From IMG/VR virus record IMGVR_UViG_3300045988_153208: DNA of 64,000 bases; one strand, 5' to 3'. The position numbers and the translations under genes were made by a program. Under the pieces are notes generated by a model. The model worked only from the letters and a program-made list of their open reading frames with translations, was not told the origin of the DNA and ran no database searches. This document shows positions 10,167-61,911 of the stretch, one piece after another. Position 1 is the first letter of the stretch. Each line of letters starts with the position of its first letter. This DNA comes from a virus.

Positions 10167-11342
10167 ATGAAGTAGAAATTTTATCTATTTAATTTAGGGG
10201 CGTTTGTATTAGGAATAATTTTAGGTTTTATTATTCCTTCAATTTTTCCATCAATCGCATTTTTAGGAACAATTTATATTAACCTTTTGAAAATGATGAT
10301 TGTTCCAATATTATTCTTCGGAATATCAAGTGCATTAGCTTCATCTAAACGAGCTGGCGCAATTACATTAAAAACAATTCTTTTATTTATTGTAATGTTT
10401 TCAGTATCATATTTAATTTGTTATGGATTATTTAGTGTGATACAACCTGGTGTAGGATTTAATTTTACTCCAGTAGAATGGAATGGAACAACAGTTTCTA
10501 CTTCATTTGAAGAATTTTTTGTAGCTATTTTCCCGAATAATATTATTCAAGCTATGGTAAATAATTCAATTCTTCCTGTAATTTTATTTGCTTTTATGTT
10601 TGGTATAGCATTACGGCATACAACTCAAGCCGTATCAGAGCGATTAATTACTACATTGAATTGTTTTAATTTAGCATTTAATAAAATGCTTGAATATATT
10701 TTATATTTTACTCCTATTGGTATTTTTGCTTTAATGGGTAATACAGTTGCTACTTATGGTAGCCAAATCCTTACAACTTGCGTTATTTATGTTGGATGCG
10801 CTTGGTTGGGTTGTTTAATTATTGCTTTAATAGTAATGATTTTACCCGTATGGATTTATTGTCATATAAATCCAATAGAGTATATTAAACGAGTGAGTAA
10901 AATTTGGTTGATTACTTTATCTACTTGTGGGTCGGCGGCAACTCTTCCTTATACTATTAAGATTTGTAATGAGGAATTTGGTATTAATAAGGAAATTACT
11001 GACATTGTTGTTCCTCTTGGATGCACTATTCATATGTGTGGAGGCGCGGTTTCATTTAGTCTATTGGCTTTGTTTAATTGTCAAATGTATGGTATTACAA
11101 TTACGCCAATAATGTTTATTACAATGTTAGTAGCGGCTATTCTTATTAATATGGGCGCGCCCGGTATACCTGGTGGTGGAGTTGTAATTGGTGCTTCTTA
11201 TTTAGCATTGATTGGTTGTCCGCTTGATTTTATTGGAGTATATGCTGGTTTTTATCGACTGCTTGATATGGCTTATACTACAATGAATGTTAGTGGAGAT
11301 ATTACGGCTAATTTGTTAATTAACAAAAATATAAATAAATAA
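10167..11342 (+). CDS. Dicarboxylate/amino acid:cation symporter (DAACS family; SstT/GltP-like), TAG at codon 3
   Basis: MK-KFYLFNLGAFVLGIILG...GAPGIPGGG signature; true start 10167 upstream of track ORF 10287. Confidence 0.7.
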
Positions 11343-11345
11343 AAT

Positions 11346-11474
11346 AAAGGCGAAAACAGCAATTTATTTTTTTTTACAGGGGACTATTTGTTGAAGGTTC
11401 GAGTCCTTCTTTCCGCAACATATGCGGGAATAGCTCAAAGGGTAGAGCGATAGTATAATAAAAAAATTCGCCTT
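11346..11474 (+). ncRNA. Circularly permuted tRNA-mimic ncRNA (YrlA/Y-RNA-like architecture)
   Basis: 8-bp terminal stem AAGGCGAA/TTCGCCTT; internal T-arm GAAGG-TTCGAGT-CCTTC; closed acceptor hairpin TTTCCGC-AACATAT-GCGGGAA; D-arm GCTC-AAAGGGTA-GAGC. Confidence 0.5.
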
Positions 11475-11480
11475 GTATAT

Positions 11481-11557
11481 GCGAGTGTAGTTCAGTTGGT
11501 AAGAACGCACGACTGATAATCGTGAGGTCAATGGTTCAAGTCCATTCATTCGCACCA
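11481..11557 (+). tRNA. tRNA-Ile(GAT)
   Basis: GCGAGTG/CATTCGC, D GTTC-AGTTGGTAA-GAAC, stem CACGA/TCGTG loop CTGATAA, T-arm AATGG-TTCAAGT-CCATT, A-CCA. Confidence 0.85.
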
Positions 11558-11630
11558 TAGGATAAAACTTATTAATTGTCTATATTCAATTCTTAAAATA
11601 TATAGAAATATGTTTTAAGGAGGTAGAATT

Positions 11631-12434
11631 GTGGAATTTTTAGGTTGTAATCCTTCTAAAAAAGATTTAAGAAATTATAAAATTAGAGCTACGGCTTCTC
11701 AGATTGATAATTTACCTGATGAATTTGAATTACCAAAATATTCATTTATTAAAAATCAAGGAAGTGTTGGTTCTTGTGTCCCTCATGTAATGTCTGAAAT
11801 TCTTGAATACCATAACCATGGGCAAAATAAATTATCTACTAATTTTTTATATGGTATAAAACGAAAATTATGTAATGATTTAAGCCAAGGAATGTATTTA
11901 AGTGATGCTTGTAAGATAGCAACTAAATATGGTGATATGCTTGAATCTGATTGTTCAGGTAATATTGAAATTCCTCATGCTTGGTATGAAGCTGAAAGTG
12001 CATATGCCAATGTTGAAAAAATGAAACGAGCATATACGTTTAGATTATAGAGTTATTTTACTTGTAAAACAAATAATGACATTAAAGTTGCTCTTCAAAA
12101 TTATGGGCCTGTTGCTGCTTGTATTGACTGGTATCAAGGTTGTAGGGCTAAAAATGATGGAACATTTATTTATAATACAAAACACAAATCAACTTATCAT
12201 TGTATTATGATTTATGGATGGAATAAAAATGGATTTTTATGTCAAAATTCATTTGGTAAATCATGGGGCAATGATGGTTGTTTTATTTTACCCTTTGATT
12301 ATATTATTGGTGATGCTCGTGCATTAGTTGATGAATATAATCCAGAAGAAGAAGCATTAATTATACCGAAAACTAATAAATTTTTAGATTTTTGGTATAA
12401 AATTTTAAATTGGTTTATTAATTTGGTGAGGTAA
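11631..12434 (+). CDS. Papain-like cysteine peptidase (C1 family), one in-frame TAG; GTG start
   Basis: QGSVGSCVPHV (QGxCGSCW-like) ... QNSFGKSWGNDG (NSWG..WG motif); merges ORFs 11631-12050 and 12207-12434. Confidence 0.6.
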
Positions 12435-12450
12435 TTTGGGAAAAAAATTA

Positions 12451-59680: not shown

Positions 59681-59711
59681 AATTATTTAATTTTAAGGAG
59701 AATTTATTATT

Positions 59712-59981
59712 ATGGCTATGAAAGAGAATTCTAAGAAGGTTCTAAATTATTTAAAGGAGATCAATGGTCAGAACGTGACTGCTGCTGATGTGGCTGACGC
59801 TCTGGGTTTTGAGAAGCGTTCTGTTGATGGTATTTTCACTTCCGCTATTCAGCGCAAGGGTTTGGGTATCCGTACTCCCGCTGAGATTGAGTTGGAGGAT
59901 GGTACTCATAAGCAGGTTAAGTTCCTGTCTCTAACTCCTGCTGGCATGAGCTTCGACCCCGATGCTCCTGACGCTGAGTAA
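59712..59981 (+). CDS. Small winged-helix-like protein (GC-richer, TAG-free)
   Basis: ORF track. Confidence 0.45.
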   Translation: MAMKENSKKVLNYLKEINGQNVTAADVADALGFEKRSVDGIFTSAIQRKGLGIRTPAEIELEDGTHKQVKFLSLTPAGMSFDPDAPDAE

Positions 59982-59996
59982 TTAATAATATAAAAT

Positions 59997-60023
59997 AAGG
60001 GGTAGATTTTTCTACCCCTTTTA
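59997..60023 (+). terminator. Rho-independent terminator
   Basis: AAGGGGTAGA-TTTT-TCTACCCCTT + T. Confidence 0.65.
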
Positions 60024-60030
60024 ATTTTAT

Positions 60031-60999
60031 ATGCTCTATTTATTTTGTATATTATCACTCATTCTTGGTGGAGTTGTTGTTTATTTTATACTCTAGCCTA
60101 AAATTAAAAAAACGCAAGAGTATAATTTAGACATTGAACGATTAAATAATAATTTAATTGGTGAAAAATGGCGACTAGAGGGTGAGACTAAACAATTACA
60201 GATTGAATTAGCTTCGCTTCAAGCGAAGAGAGACGAAGTTCAATCTAGTATTTTTTCGCTAGAACAGCAAGCTAAAGAATCAGCCGATATATTTTATCAA
60301 AAAAATATGGAAATAGCATAGACTAATTTAGACAAATCATTAGAAAATGCTAGTAATTATTATACTACTCAAACTGAATAGTATTAGAATGATTATAAAG
60401 AAATGATGGCTGATTGCGCTCAATCTATTTCTGATTTAATTAATCAAAAGAGAATTGAATTAAAAGAATTAGATTTAGCAATTAAAGAACAATCTGAAAA
60501 AGTAAATGCTTCTGTTGAAGCGAGTAAAAGAGCCGAAGAAATCCGCTCTCAAAGTGATTTTTATAAATTAACAATTCCAGAAGAAGATTTAGATGAAATT
60601 AAAGAATTGCGCGAAGTTGAAAAACATTTGCGGAATCCTGAACCTCTTAATAAAGTTATTTGGAAATGTTATTATGAAAAACCTACTACAGATTTAATTG
60701 GTCGTGTAATTGGTTCTGGAACTCATACTGGGATTTATAAAATTACCAATTTAACCAATTAGATGTGCTATGTGGGTCAAGCGGCAAATTTGGCTGAACG
60801 TTGGAAACAACATATTAAACGTGGATTAGGTGCTGATCCAGTTACTAAGAATAAACTCTACCCAGCTATGAAGGCTATTGGTGTAGAGAATTTTTCATTT
60901 GAAGTAATAGAAGAATGTGAGCGTTCAAAATTAGATGAACGCGAAGACTATTGGCAAGATTTTTTTAAAGCCAAAGAATTTGGGTATAGTATAAAATAA
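60031..60999 (+). CDS. Membrane-anchored coiled-coil protein with C-terminal GIY-YIG nuclease domain (5 in-frame TAGs)
   Basis: N-terminal TM LYLFCILSLILGGVVVYFIL; C-terminal GIYKITNLTN-MCYVGQAANLAERWKQH...E; merges ORFs 60403-60762 and 60763-60999. Confidence 0.5.
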
Positions 61000-61274
61000 T
61001 GTATAGAATAATTGATAAACGTGGAACTGGAAAAACAAGTAGATTGATGCTACTGGCCAAAGAGGAAAATGCTATTATTGCTTGTTCTAATCCTGATGCT
61101 ATGAGAATTAAAGCAGAAAGATATGGAATCATTGGAATTAATTTTATTTCATATTATGATTATGTAAATGGAAATTATCAAAAAGGCAGTATGGTATTTA
61201 TTGATGAACTTGATTGTTTTGTTCGGTCTCTTGGGCATAATCTCAGTGGCTATACTCTAAGTAATGAGGATTGA
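60999..61274 (+). CDS. Hypothetical protein (91 aa)
   Basis: ORF track. Confidence 0.4.
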   Translation: MYRIIDKRGTGKTSRLMLLAKEENAIIACSNPDAMRIKAERYGIIGINFISYYDYVNGNYQKGSMVFIDELDCFVRSLGHNLSGYTLSNED

Positions 61275-61911
61275 AATGGATTATAAAAATATTGTAAGTA
61301 ATGTAGATATTTATGATTTGGAAAAAAGTATTTTAGCTTCTGGATATCCAATGAGAACTATTATTCCTGATAGAGATATTACTGAAAAAGATTTGGCTCG
61401 TTGCCAAAATTTGGTAAATGCAACGAAAACTGGTAATGGAGCTCATGCTCAATTTATGACTGGTATTCGTGTTAATTTTGATTTAACTTTTTCTAATAAG
61501 GCTTGGGTTGAAGCTGAACGATATAGATTCCTTGAATTTGTAAGTTCTCAATCTACAATGCATCGTATTACTAAGTTTAATTTAGATAATCAATACAATG
61601 AATACGTTGATGAACGCATTATTGAGATTATGAAAGAAAAAGTTAAGAGTTATAATAATATAATTCAAAGTTTAGAAGATGTAAAAGATTCTACACAACG
61701 TGAACTATTAAATGATATTGCCAAAAGAAAATATCTTGAAATTCTTTATTCTAATCCTGCTGGATTTACTCTAACAGCGCGAATGACTACTAATTATCGT
61801 TGTTTAAGAAATATTTATATGCAACGAAAAGATCATCGTTTACCTGAGTGGCGAGCGTTTTGTAGATGGATAGAGACTTTGCCTTATGCTCAGGAACTAT
61901 TAATTAACTAA
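61264..61911 (+). CDS. Divergent ThyX-like (flavin-dependent thymidylate synthase) candidate
   Basis: ERYRFLEFVSSQSTMH resembles ThyX RHRxxSxxQxSxRY region (RYR in place of RHR); weak. Confidence 0.35.
   Translation: MRIEMDYKNIVSNVDIYDLEKSILASGYPMRTIIPDRDITEKDLARCQNLVNATKTGNGAHAQFMTGIRVNFDLTFSNKAWVEAERYRFLEFVSSQSTMHRITKFNLDNQYNEYVDERIIEIMKEKVKSYNNIIQSLEDVKDSTQRELLNDIAKRKYLEILYSNPAGFTLTARMTTNYRCLRNIYMQRKDHRLPEWRAFCRWIETLPYAQELLIN

Follow-up and report, generated by a model that had tools for sequence, protein, structure and literature searches.

A remote ThyX homologue and a serine hydroxymethyltransferase in a TAG-recoded phage genome: a candidate thymidylate supply beside a putative separate amino-acid gene pair

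We analyzed a stretch of 64,000 nucleotides (the window, hereafter) from the IMG/VR virus record IMGVR_UViG_3300045988_153208, which is part of a phage genome of approximately 190–200 kb using genetic code 15, in which TAG encodes glutamine. Four metabolic genes lie on its plus strand (Table 1): a secondary transporter of the DAACS family, a serine hydroxymethyltransferase (SHMT), an aminotransferase dependent on pyridoxal phosphate (PLP), and a divergent protein with the fold of the flavin-dependent thymidylate synthase ThyX. An earlier interpretation made from the letters alone (the sequence-only reading) had joined the four into one pathway, in which imported serine would be converted to glycine and methylene-tetrahydrofolate for thymidylate synthesis. 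All four open reading frames (ORFs) are present, three of them with strong family support, and they are scattered over approximately 52 kb in separate modules (a tRNA array, an RNA-repair block, a lysis/topoisomerase block, and a replication block). Instead of one serine pathway, we see two loosely related pairs in a code-15 phage. We lean toward the view that SHMT and the ThyX-like protein supply thymidylate, while the transporter and the aminotransferase form a separate amino-acid pair.

The ThyX-like protein matches phrog_6721, a family of “unknown function,” with an E-value of 6.7e-52, and its family comprises 2,503 representative clusters (50% identity, E-value ≤ 1e-3). Deposited homologues occur in phages of Clostridium, Clostridioides, Fusobacterium, Enterocloster, and Desulfovibrio; all of them are “hypothetical” or unannotated, and none of the cluster members checked carries a functional name. 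The Pfam Thy1 profile (PF02511) does not match the window protein at E ≤ 0.01, nor at E ≤ 1, but it weakly matches 13 of 50 diverse family members (best E-value 5.1e-7). An AlphaFold model built on a 50-sequence alignment has a pLDDT of 96.1 and a pTM of 0.89, and when it was compared with the PDB using Foldseek, the top 50 matches were all ThyX (E-values 7.5e-8 to 4.6e-6; TM-scores 0.50–0.64; 14–19% identity). Aligning the family with a ten-sequence ThyX alignment in hhalign gave a remote match (E-value 2.2e-6, probability 78%); against one ThyX sequence there was a weak local match (probability 2%). Matches of the ORF or its profile to PDB sequences of CusC, a complex I subunit, and PsbA were dismissed as noise.

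We counted residue states over the 50 family members, using the numbering of Thermotoga maritima ThyX. The equivalents of P151 (50 of 50), S88 (49), R174 and N163 (48 each), R78 (47), and H53 (46) are kept in nearly all of them, and that of R90 is Arg or Lys in 39. At the R80 equivalent, His is found in 26 members and Arg in seven, this phage having Arg. The sequence-only reading had noticed RYR in place of RHR, and R86-Y87-R88 is indeed what the translation gives; its “weak ThyX-like ORF” is, as we judge from the fold matches, the hhalign result, and the Thy1 hits of the family, a distant homologue of ThyX whose pocket has been partly remodelled. A mini P-loop protein (GTGKTS ... FIDELD; phrog_1828, unknown function) is encoded just upstream, and its ORF runs 11 nucleotides into the ThyX-like gene. 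The two stay together in relatives of 55–100% identity, and this joint conservation, with the overlap, suggests that they are translationally coupled.

On the strength of its family matches, we regard the SHMT as genuine (Pfam PF00464: E-value 4.9e-139, 463.8 bits, cut-off 27; NCBIfam NF000586: 512.2 bits, cut-off 335). Its translation shows VQPHSG, GGHLSHG, and VDMAH as well as the PLP-binding Lys in a T-T-T-T-H-K motif, and as a family member it should make glycine and 5,10-methylene-tetrahydrofolate from serine and tetrahydrofolate (THF). The gene starts at ATG 39200, with an alternative TTG at 39179 directly after the upstream stop. It had been described as full length, which holds only if the in-frame TAG at codon 51 (39350–39352) is read as Gln. 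We considered the insertion that carries this TAG (DVEDTAG-Q-RG) as a phage-specific regulatory device and rejected the idea, since an equally large insertion is present at this site in most phage SHMTs and the codon is CAG in two close relatives. The gene is enclosed by an RNA-repair-like block, with an RlaP-like nucleotidyltransferase and an RNA-ligase-like protein (PHA02142 OB domain) around it and a polynucleotide-kinase-like P-loop protein and a phosphoesterase downstream.

What company do the two genes keep in other phages? SHMT is common in viral contigs, with 153 confirmed stretches in IMG/VR, and we examined 10 kb on either side of 75 SHMT loci not closely related to this phage. Members of the ThyX-like family are present in 16 of these, on the same strand, 0.3–2.4 kb from SHMT, and in at least four different arrangements. 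Canonical ThyX is found in 11 of the 75 loci, none of which is among the 16, and ThyA and dihydrofolate reductase (DHFR; FolA) are found in none of the 75. Fifteen of the 16 loci also have a dUTPase and eight a dCMP deaminase. The gene order in two of them (L069 and L064) is class II ribonucleotide reductase (RNR), SHMT, dCMP deaminase, ThyX-like gene, dUTPase (Pfam-confirmed for L069). Two TAG-recoded loci (L073 and L098), with gene names assigned by similarity and by reading the translations, have NrdD, an NrdG-like activase (a weak 4Fe-4S match), SHMT, in some cases a C1 peptidase, the ThyX-like gene, and dUTPase. We infer that the family holds the thymidylate-synthase position, X, in the RNR–SHMT–dCMP deaminase–X–dUTPase clusters of other phages.

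A second sample comprised 79 loci around the ThyX-like genes closest to the query, with 6 kb on either side. Thirty-seven share the replication-module synteny of this phage, and among the remaining 42, 27 have a dUTPase, NrdD, RNR, or dCMP deaminase within 6 kb; no ThyA, ThyX, or DHFR occurs within that distance in the family loci fetched. Within its own lineage the ThyX-like gene is a core gene, the order GyrB, GyrA, ligase, ..., ThyX-like, winged helix-turn-helix protein, 312 amino acid protein being kept down to approximately 50% identity. Here and in Clostridioides/Clostridium phages it lies among genes for ligase, Erf, an SSB-like protein, helicase, and primase, and the family is also present in small temperate Clostridium phages.

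ThyX yields THF and not dihydrofolate, so that SHMT alone closes the cycle and DHFR becomes dispensable (PMC6294363). In the cycle we propose, SHMT would convert serine and THF to glycine and 5,10-methylene-THF; the ThyX-like protein would pass the methylene group by way of a reduced flavin to C5 of deoxyuridine monophosphate (dUMP) and release THF; and SHMT would recharge the freed THF, closing a cycle independent of DHFR. The pattern of SHMT with a ThyX-type protein, never with ThyA or DHFR, fits chemistry that yields THF and argues for a thymidylate-synthase role of the ThyX-like protein. Judged from its sequence relatives and its predicted structure, the protein would be a flavin- and folate-dependent enzyme that modifies dUMP at C5, most likely a thymidylate synthase, and a DHFR-independent cycle of SHMT and a ThyX-type enzyme is likely. 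We infer flavin binding, dUMP as the substrate, and deoxythymidine monophosphate (dTMP) as the product. The link from SHMT to thymidylate in the sequence-only reading is plausible from the fold, the remote homology, and the context in other phages, with dTMP as the expected product.

Two of the four genes depend on the genetic code of the phage. Proteins identical or nearly identical to those of the window are found on contigs of 186–200 kb, and a gut bacterium of the Clostridia or Lachnospiraceae type is the probable host. All long ORFs are on the plus strand, and the G+C content is 21–43%. ARAGORN predicts 25 tRNA genes at 2.9–27.8 kb, including a suppressor tRNA with anticodon CTA. When TAG is treated as a sense codon, the plus-strand ORF content rises from 12,433 to 19,077 amino acids, and the 66 tabulated genes hold 109 in-frame TAGs. 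Among close relatives TAG swaps with CAG or CAA at three of seven variable sites: the TAG of SHMT is CAG in two 97%-identical relatives (L028 and L029), and two other sites are CAA in relatives. GyrB has a single TAG, which in the alignment with solved GyrB structures coincides with the conserved Q of “...rnrknQAilplkgk...” (TOPRIM motif). Because of this polymorphism and the conserved Q of GyrB, we read TAG as Gln; the TAGs of PhoH and of a peptidoglycan-binding domain also sit at positions that we take to be typically Q. In-frame TAGs at Gln positions of conserved genes and a tRNA(CUA), the two features that define code 15, are thus both found.

TAG is absent from the genes for the aminotransferase and the ThyX-like protein and occurs once in SHMT (polymorphic) and once in the transporter (conserved). 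Under the standard code, the ORFs for the transporter and SHMT are only 10287–11342 and 39383–40402. The transporter, and in this strain SHMT, can be made only once TAG is read as Gln, which requires the suppressor tRNA. The recoding had escaped the sequence-only reading, and both genes are complete only under code 15. Calls of auxiliary genes in such phages therefore hinge on spotting TAG-to-Gln recoding; the standard code makes SHMT and the transporter appear truncated. The density of TAG is very uneven, with many in genes at 0–28 kb and almost none in the block at 28.4–45.8 kb. In the TOPRIM region of GyrB (54370–54400), the phage has “IVEGKSAEGPAK” where solved GyrB proteins have “LVEGDSAGGSAK”, and Lys replaces the Asp that follows the catalytic Glu-Gly. 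Two of the tRNA calls are odd, one being a tRNA-Phe with anticodon AAA and the other having a two-base anticodon loop call (“???”); they may represent pseudo-tRNAs or tRNAs that decode in an unusual way.

The transporter matches PF00375 with 307 bits (cut-off 27.9; E-value 2.1e-91) over profile positions 6–386 of 387; its assignment to the DAACS symporters, its GAPGIPGGG motif, and its place inside the tRNA array between tRNA-Arg and tRNA-Ile are as first described. A Shine-Dalgarno-like AAGGAG lies 8 nucleotides upstream of ATG 10167, and the in-frame TAG is codon 3 (10173–10175), kept in five of five close relatives. Its relatives in the PDB are GltPh, GltTk, ASCT, and EAAT. The label “SstT-like” finds no support at the family level: the transporter reaches no NCBIfam cut-off (DctA, 158 bits; GltP, 146; SstT, 107.5, with NF010151 cut-off 308), SstT is the lowest of the four matching models, and the identity to the E. 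coli proteins is 24% for SstT and 30% for GltP.

Established structure-function work on GltPh and ASCT allows us to read the substrate from transmembrane segments 7 and 8 (TM7 and TM8). We aligned the transporter with E. coli SstT, DctA, GltP, and TcyP and with the solved aspartate transporter 9bgz. In TM8 the phage protein has D-M-A-Y...N, compared with DMAR in GltP and 9bgz, SEAR in DctA, DMGR in TcyP, and DSCE in SstT; in TM7 it has HMCGG, compared with NLDGS (GltP), NLDGT (DctA), GQNGC (TcyP), NMAGA (SstT), and NMDGT (9bgz). Transporters of the glutamate/aspartate type have NMDGT and an Arg in TM8 (R397 of GltPh), whereas the phage protein has HMCGG and DMAY, with Tyr for Arg. It keeps the TM8 Asp that is the ligand of the α-amino group and the Asn that is the ligand of the α-carboxyl group. 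With these ligands kept and the Arg for acidic side chains lost, the substrate is likely, from the motifs, to be a non-acidic amino acid. Serine is possible and not specifically indicated.

Among viruses, the transporter was found only in five near-identical contigs. The closest bacterial homologues, collected with a DMAYTTMN pattern, are in metagenome-assembled genomes (MAGs) of Lachnospiraceae (59% identity), Bacilli (53%), and Clostridia (51%), followed by those of Salinicoccus, Jeotgalicoccus, and Oceanobacillus (approximately 40%); all have DMAYTTMN and [NH]M[AC]GG. A class I aminotransferase is encoded directly downstream of the homologue at the Lachnospiraceae locus, a DapL-like aminotransferase gene overlaps the homologue at the Bacilli locus, and at 20 Bacillales loci a prephenate dehydratase gene lies directly upstream, often overlapping. 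The prephenate dehydratase-linked subgroup (L121–L143; TM8 DMAYTTMN, TM7 NMAGG) is found in Salinicoccus, Jeotgalicoccus, Oceanobacillus, Ornithinibacillus, and Corticicoccus, and its neighbors suggest a tie to phenylalanine or prephenate metabolism. If anything, the neighbors of the transporter point to transaminase-linked, possibly aromatic, amino-acid metabolism rather than to serine, and the import of serine that had been proposed finds no backing in a DAACS protein outside the SstT equivalogs whose bacterial relatives adjoin such genes. The “DMAY” subgroup represents an uncharacterised type of DAACS transporter that is worth a substrate screen. Directly after the transporter and tRNA-Ile is a papain-family C1 peptidase; in L098 a related peptidase (33% identity) separates SHMT from the ThyX-like gene. 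Next in this phage come a radical-SAM protein with nine TAGs and a short membrane protein of the formate/nitrite transporter family. We considered the latter two as a link to formate or one-carbon metabolism, found only sub-threshold NCBIfam matches (FocA, 30.8 bits against 290; SPASM-type maturases), and drew no conclusion.

The assignment of the PLP aminotransferase is borne out by Pfam (PF00155, Aminotran_1_2: 168 bits, cut-off 19.7; E-value 3.6e-49) and by its NPNNPTG, DEVY, SFSK (SFSKKYS), and C-terminal Arg motifs. No NCBIfam equivalog cut-off is reached, the best being an archaeal aspartate aminotransferase (AspAT) model with 199 bits against 550. Its PDB matches range from 2.6e-40 (T. 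maritima AspAT, 1o4s) to 1e-23 and include bifunctional Asp/prephenate aminotransferases. At the syntenic site of a relative (L109; anchor protein 74% identical), the gene is absent, with 277 nucleotides between the homologue of 51534–51905 and GyrB, which makes it an accessory gene. A role in serine or one-carbon metabolism, as once suggested, finds no support in an accessory AspAT-like class I enzyme. The enzyme shares 32% identity with the aminotransferase encoded next to the transporter homologue of the Lachnospiraceae MAG, and both proteins give the same NCBIfam match profile; as the distance to T. maritima AspAT is similar, orthology is only suggestive. By analogy with the closest bacterial relatives of the transporter, which adjoin class I aminotransferases or prephenate dehydratase, the transporter may work with the accessory aminotransferase of the phage. 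Both genes are lineage-specific additions.

Several observations weigh against the proposal of two pairs with a thymidylate cycle. Taken alone, the ThyX-like ORF has no sequence match in Pfam, NCBIfam, or the PDB, and its family profile recovers no ThyX chain from the PDB sequences. The sequence-only reading had named failure against every thymidylate-synthase profile as grounds for giving up the assignment; the single sequence does fail, and the evidence from family, structure, and context overturns this. The pocket has changed: H79 is Tyr in all 50 family members, L173 is an invariant Gln, E86 is Ser, Y91 is Ile or Leu, R147 is Leu in 25 of 50 with Arg not among the six commonest residues, and the signature RHRx7S has become RY[HR]x8S (R86-Y87-R88-x8-S97 in the window protein). 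As for context, 21 kb separate SHMT from the ThyX-like gene in this phage, none of the 79 loci sampled around the nearest family members has SHMT within 6 kb, and the window and the next 10 kb yielded no dUTPase, dCMP deaminase, or RNR. The 64 kb plus 10 kb examined belong to a genome of approximately 197 kb, elsewhere in which a canonical ThyA or ThyX could lie. The second pair has its own difficulties: the link between transporter and aminotransferase comes from two bacterial loci, the genes are 41 kb apart in the phage, and the search pattern biased the sample of transporter relatives toward its own motif. Some of these points would suit other explanations. The flavin/nucleotide pocket is systematically altered (H79Y, L173Q, R147L, E86S, each in 50–100% of the 50 members), as one might expect if the protein were an active flavin/folate enzyme that uses SHMT-derived methylene-THF to make another C5-substituted pyrimidine nucleotide, such as 5-hydroxymethyl-dUMP (from a trapped exocyclic-methylene intermediate) or methylated dCMP, for modified phage DNA. 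A dCMP deaminase, a dUTPase, and a one-carbon donor are also the context of dUMP hydroxymethylases in SPO1-type phages, and the surroundings of the family would suit such an enzyme. The ThyX mechanism passes via an exocyclic methylene (PMC8989533), which nucleophiles could trap. However, no kinase, glycosyltransferase, or aminoacyl-transferase of the hypermodification type was seen beside the gene; in 154 flanks the family is never accompanied by ThyX or ThyA, a pattern that suits a stand-in for a thymidylate synthase better than an addition to one; and base replacement would be unusual in the small temperate Clostridium phages that carry the family. We consider this explanation unlikely.

We give still less weight to the idea that the protein has lost synthase chemistry and is now a nucleotide- or DNA-binding factor of replication or recombination, the four genes being unrelated. 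The missing R147, a ligand of the dUMP phosphate, the failure of every sequence profile, and the setting among ligase, Erf, SSB-like, helicase, and primase genes all agree with it, but it leaves hard to explain why H53, R78, S88, R174, N163, and H178-like positions are 92–98% conserved if there is no ThyX-like ligand site. It also does not account for the repeated placement beside SHMT, dCMP deaminase, dUTPase, and RNR or for the mutual exclusion with canonical ThyX. The original four-gene model, in which serine enters through the transporter, its pool is fed by the aminotransferase, and SHMT and ThyX make methylene-THF and dTMP, respectively, appears to us the most doubtful. TM7 and TM8 of the transporter do resemble those of SstT, without the Arg for acidic side chains and without the NMDGT Asp and Thr; other phages do link SHMT to the ThyX-like family; and in L098 a peptidase akin to the neighbor of the transporter lies between the two. 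On the other hand, the SstT score falls far short of its cut-off (107.5 against 308 bits), and the genes that adjoin the kin of the transporter encode class I aminotransferases or, at 20 loci, prephenate dehydratase, and are not serine genes. Serine synthesis uses a class V aminotransferase; the phage enzyme is AspAT-like, of class I, and is missing from a relative of approximately 74% identity that keeps the ThyX-like gene. Moreover, the transporter was found only in five near-identical contigs, while SHMT and the ThyX-like gene are widespread.

If the thymidylate proposal is followed further, phrog_6721 and its thousands of relatives could represent an unrecognised, highly divergent class of flavin- and folate-dependent enzymes that modify pyrimidines at C5. 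This broader claim is tentative, and we would not yet call it probable. Such a class would have the ThyX fold, RY[HR], and the invariant Tyr and Gln, and could be a new variant of thymidylate synthase or a maker of modified bases; it would stand in for canonical ThyX in phages whose hosts are Clostridia, Fusobacteria, and related gut bacteria, with the phage SHMT as its partner. Phage SHMT, DAACS genes in phages (phrog_16930), and code 15 are already known, and our literature search found no description of a divergent phage ThyX or of a phage module of SHMT and ThyX. If the enzyme is active, a family of 2,503 clusters now “hypothetical” or unnamed in the records inspected would gain a function, and the sequence space of flavin-dependent thymidylate synthases, which attract study both as targets for antibacterials and because their chemistry is unusual, would widen considerably. 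The natural substitutions at H79, R147, and L173 would then be informative for the mechanism, and many gut phages would carry a self-contained, DHFR-independent dTMP cycle of SHMT and a ThyX-type enzyme.

Table 1. Features of the window, with positions counted from its first nucleotide.
Feature	Position	Strand	Length (amino acids)	Basis or remark
DAACS (SDF family) secondary transporter	10167..11342	+	391	Pfam SDF PF00375
Serine hydroxymethyltransferase	39200..40402	+	400	Pfam SHMT, NCBIfam NF000586
Class I/II PLP aminotransferase, AspAT-like	52006..53064	+	352	Pfam PF00155
Divergent ThyX-fold protein, phrog_6721	61264..61911	+	215	Fold, remote homology, context
Suppressor tRNA, anticodon CTA	17770..17841	+		ARAGORN; “Pyl” label from anticodon only
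Mini P-loop protein	60999-61274		91	phrog_1828
tRNA-Arg	10067-10142			Flanks transporter
tRNA-Ile	11481-11557			Flanks transporter
Odd tRNA calls	8321-8393, 15637-15707			
Papain-family C1 peptidase	11631-12434			
Radical-SAM protein	12436-13716			
Formate/nitrite-transporter-family membrane protein	13670-14266			
RNA-repair-like block	37787-44337			Encloses SHMT
RlaP-like nucleotidyltransferase	37787-38593			
RNA-ligase-like protein	40480-41865			PHA02142 OB domain
Polynucleotide-kinase-like P-loop protein	43076-43582			
Phosphoesterase	43582-44337			
HNH-/GIY-YIG-like ORFs	3742-4224, 4340-4921, 5668-6282, 7172-7876, 14958-15632, 17923-18549, 25100-25546, 26976-27431, 33662-34399			By eye
Three paralogous ORFs	51-2794			Glycosyltransferase-like by eye
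Two large radical-SAM/SPASM-like ORFs	21002-23759			
DUF2828/DUF7788 protein	29058-30587		509	
Major vault protein-like protein	30758-33250		830	Pfam MVP_shoulder, Vault_3
SPFH/Band 7, flotillin-like membrane protein	44413-45801		462	Pfam Band_7

Other genes of the window deserve a brief description. One protein matches the eukaryotic major vault protein (MVP; Pfam MVP_shoulder, 7e-22, and Vault_3; rat MVP, 1.3e-20 over approximately 320 residues) and directly follows the DUF2828/DUF7788 protein; such a vault-like pair is unusual in a phage, here beside a tRNA array and RNA-repair genes. Many HNH-like (“LELHHKDG..N”) and GIY-YIG-like ORFs, presumably homing endonucleases, lie scattered between the tRNA genes, and some mechanically called ORFs overlap tRNA genes. 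The three paralogous ORFs near the start of the window share an N-terminal “NCYMT..E.YLP.VIR” and a DxD-like “LDADT/IDADV” and have five to eight TAGs each; the two that were scanned (51–935 against Pfam, 928–2067 against NCBIfam) gave no match. Of the two radical-SAM/SPASM-like ORFs, one has weak matches of the ranthipeptide, sactipeptide, or sulfatase-maturase type and the other a C-terminal Cys-rich match only. The SPFH protein (Band_7, 5e-21) has a counterpart, seen by eye, after the transporter homologue at the Bacilli MAG locus (L120).

How does this phage compare with known systems? Recoding of TAG to Gln with suppressor tRNAs has been described in gut phages (bioRxiv 10.1101/2021.08.26.457843; PMC9523058). 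With these code-15 phages the present one shares in-frame TAGs in most genes, a tRNA-CTA, and TAG aligned with Gln; unlike them, it has no DNA-level relative among 50,697 deposited phage records (blastn with the topoisomerase region). The best structural-database relatives of the aminotransferase are the subgroup Ib AspATs (T. maritima 1o4s, Thermus thermophilus 1bjw), which include some prephenate aminotransferases (5wmh); the phage enzyme is shorter. E. coli SstT, a Na+/serine-threonine symporter, is a DAACS protein like the phage transporter, but it has Glu where the phage has Tyr at the position of the acidic-binding Arg and NMAGA in place of HMCGG, and the phage protein belongs to the bacterial “DMAYTTMN” subgroup. 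The Arg is likewise replaced in the mammalian ASCT transporters for neutral amino acids (DAACS/SLC1), ASCT1 and ASCT2 carrying Thr and Cys there. Canonical ThyX (PF02511; T. maritima TM0449, Helicobacter pylori, Mycobacterium tuberculosis) has the same fold as the window protein and a similar length of approximately 215 amino acids, and in phages it shares with the ThyX-like family the neighbors SHMT, dCMP deaminase, dUTPase, and RNR; the identity is 15–19%, and searches with PF02511 and PDB sequences do not recognise the window protein. Compared with the ThyX/SHMT cycle without DHFR, as in H. pylori (PMC6294363), the candidate cycle would be phage-encoded, with a divergent ThyX-like protein and its two genes 21 kb apart; as in that cycle, SHMT is combined with a ThyX-type protein, with no DHFR or ThyA nearby, both at the 75 SHMT loci and in the window.

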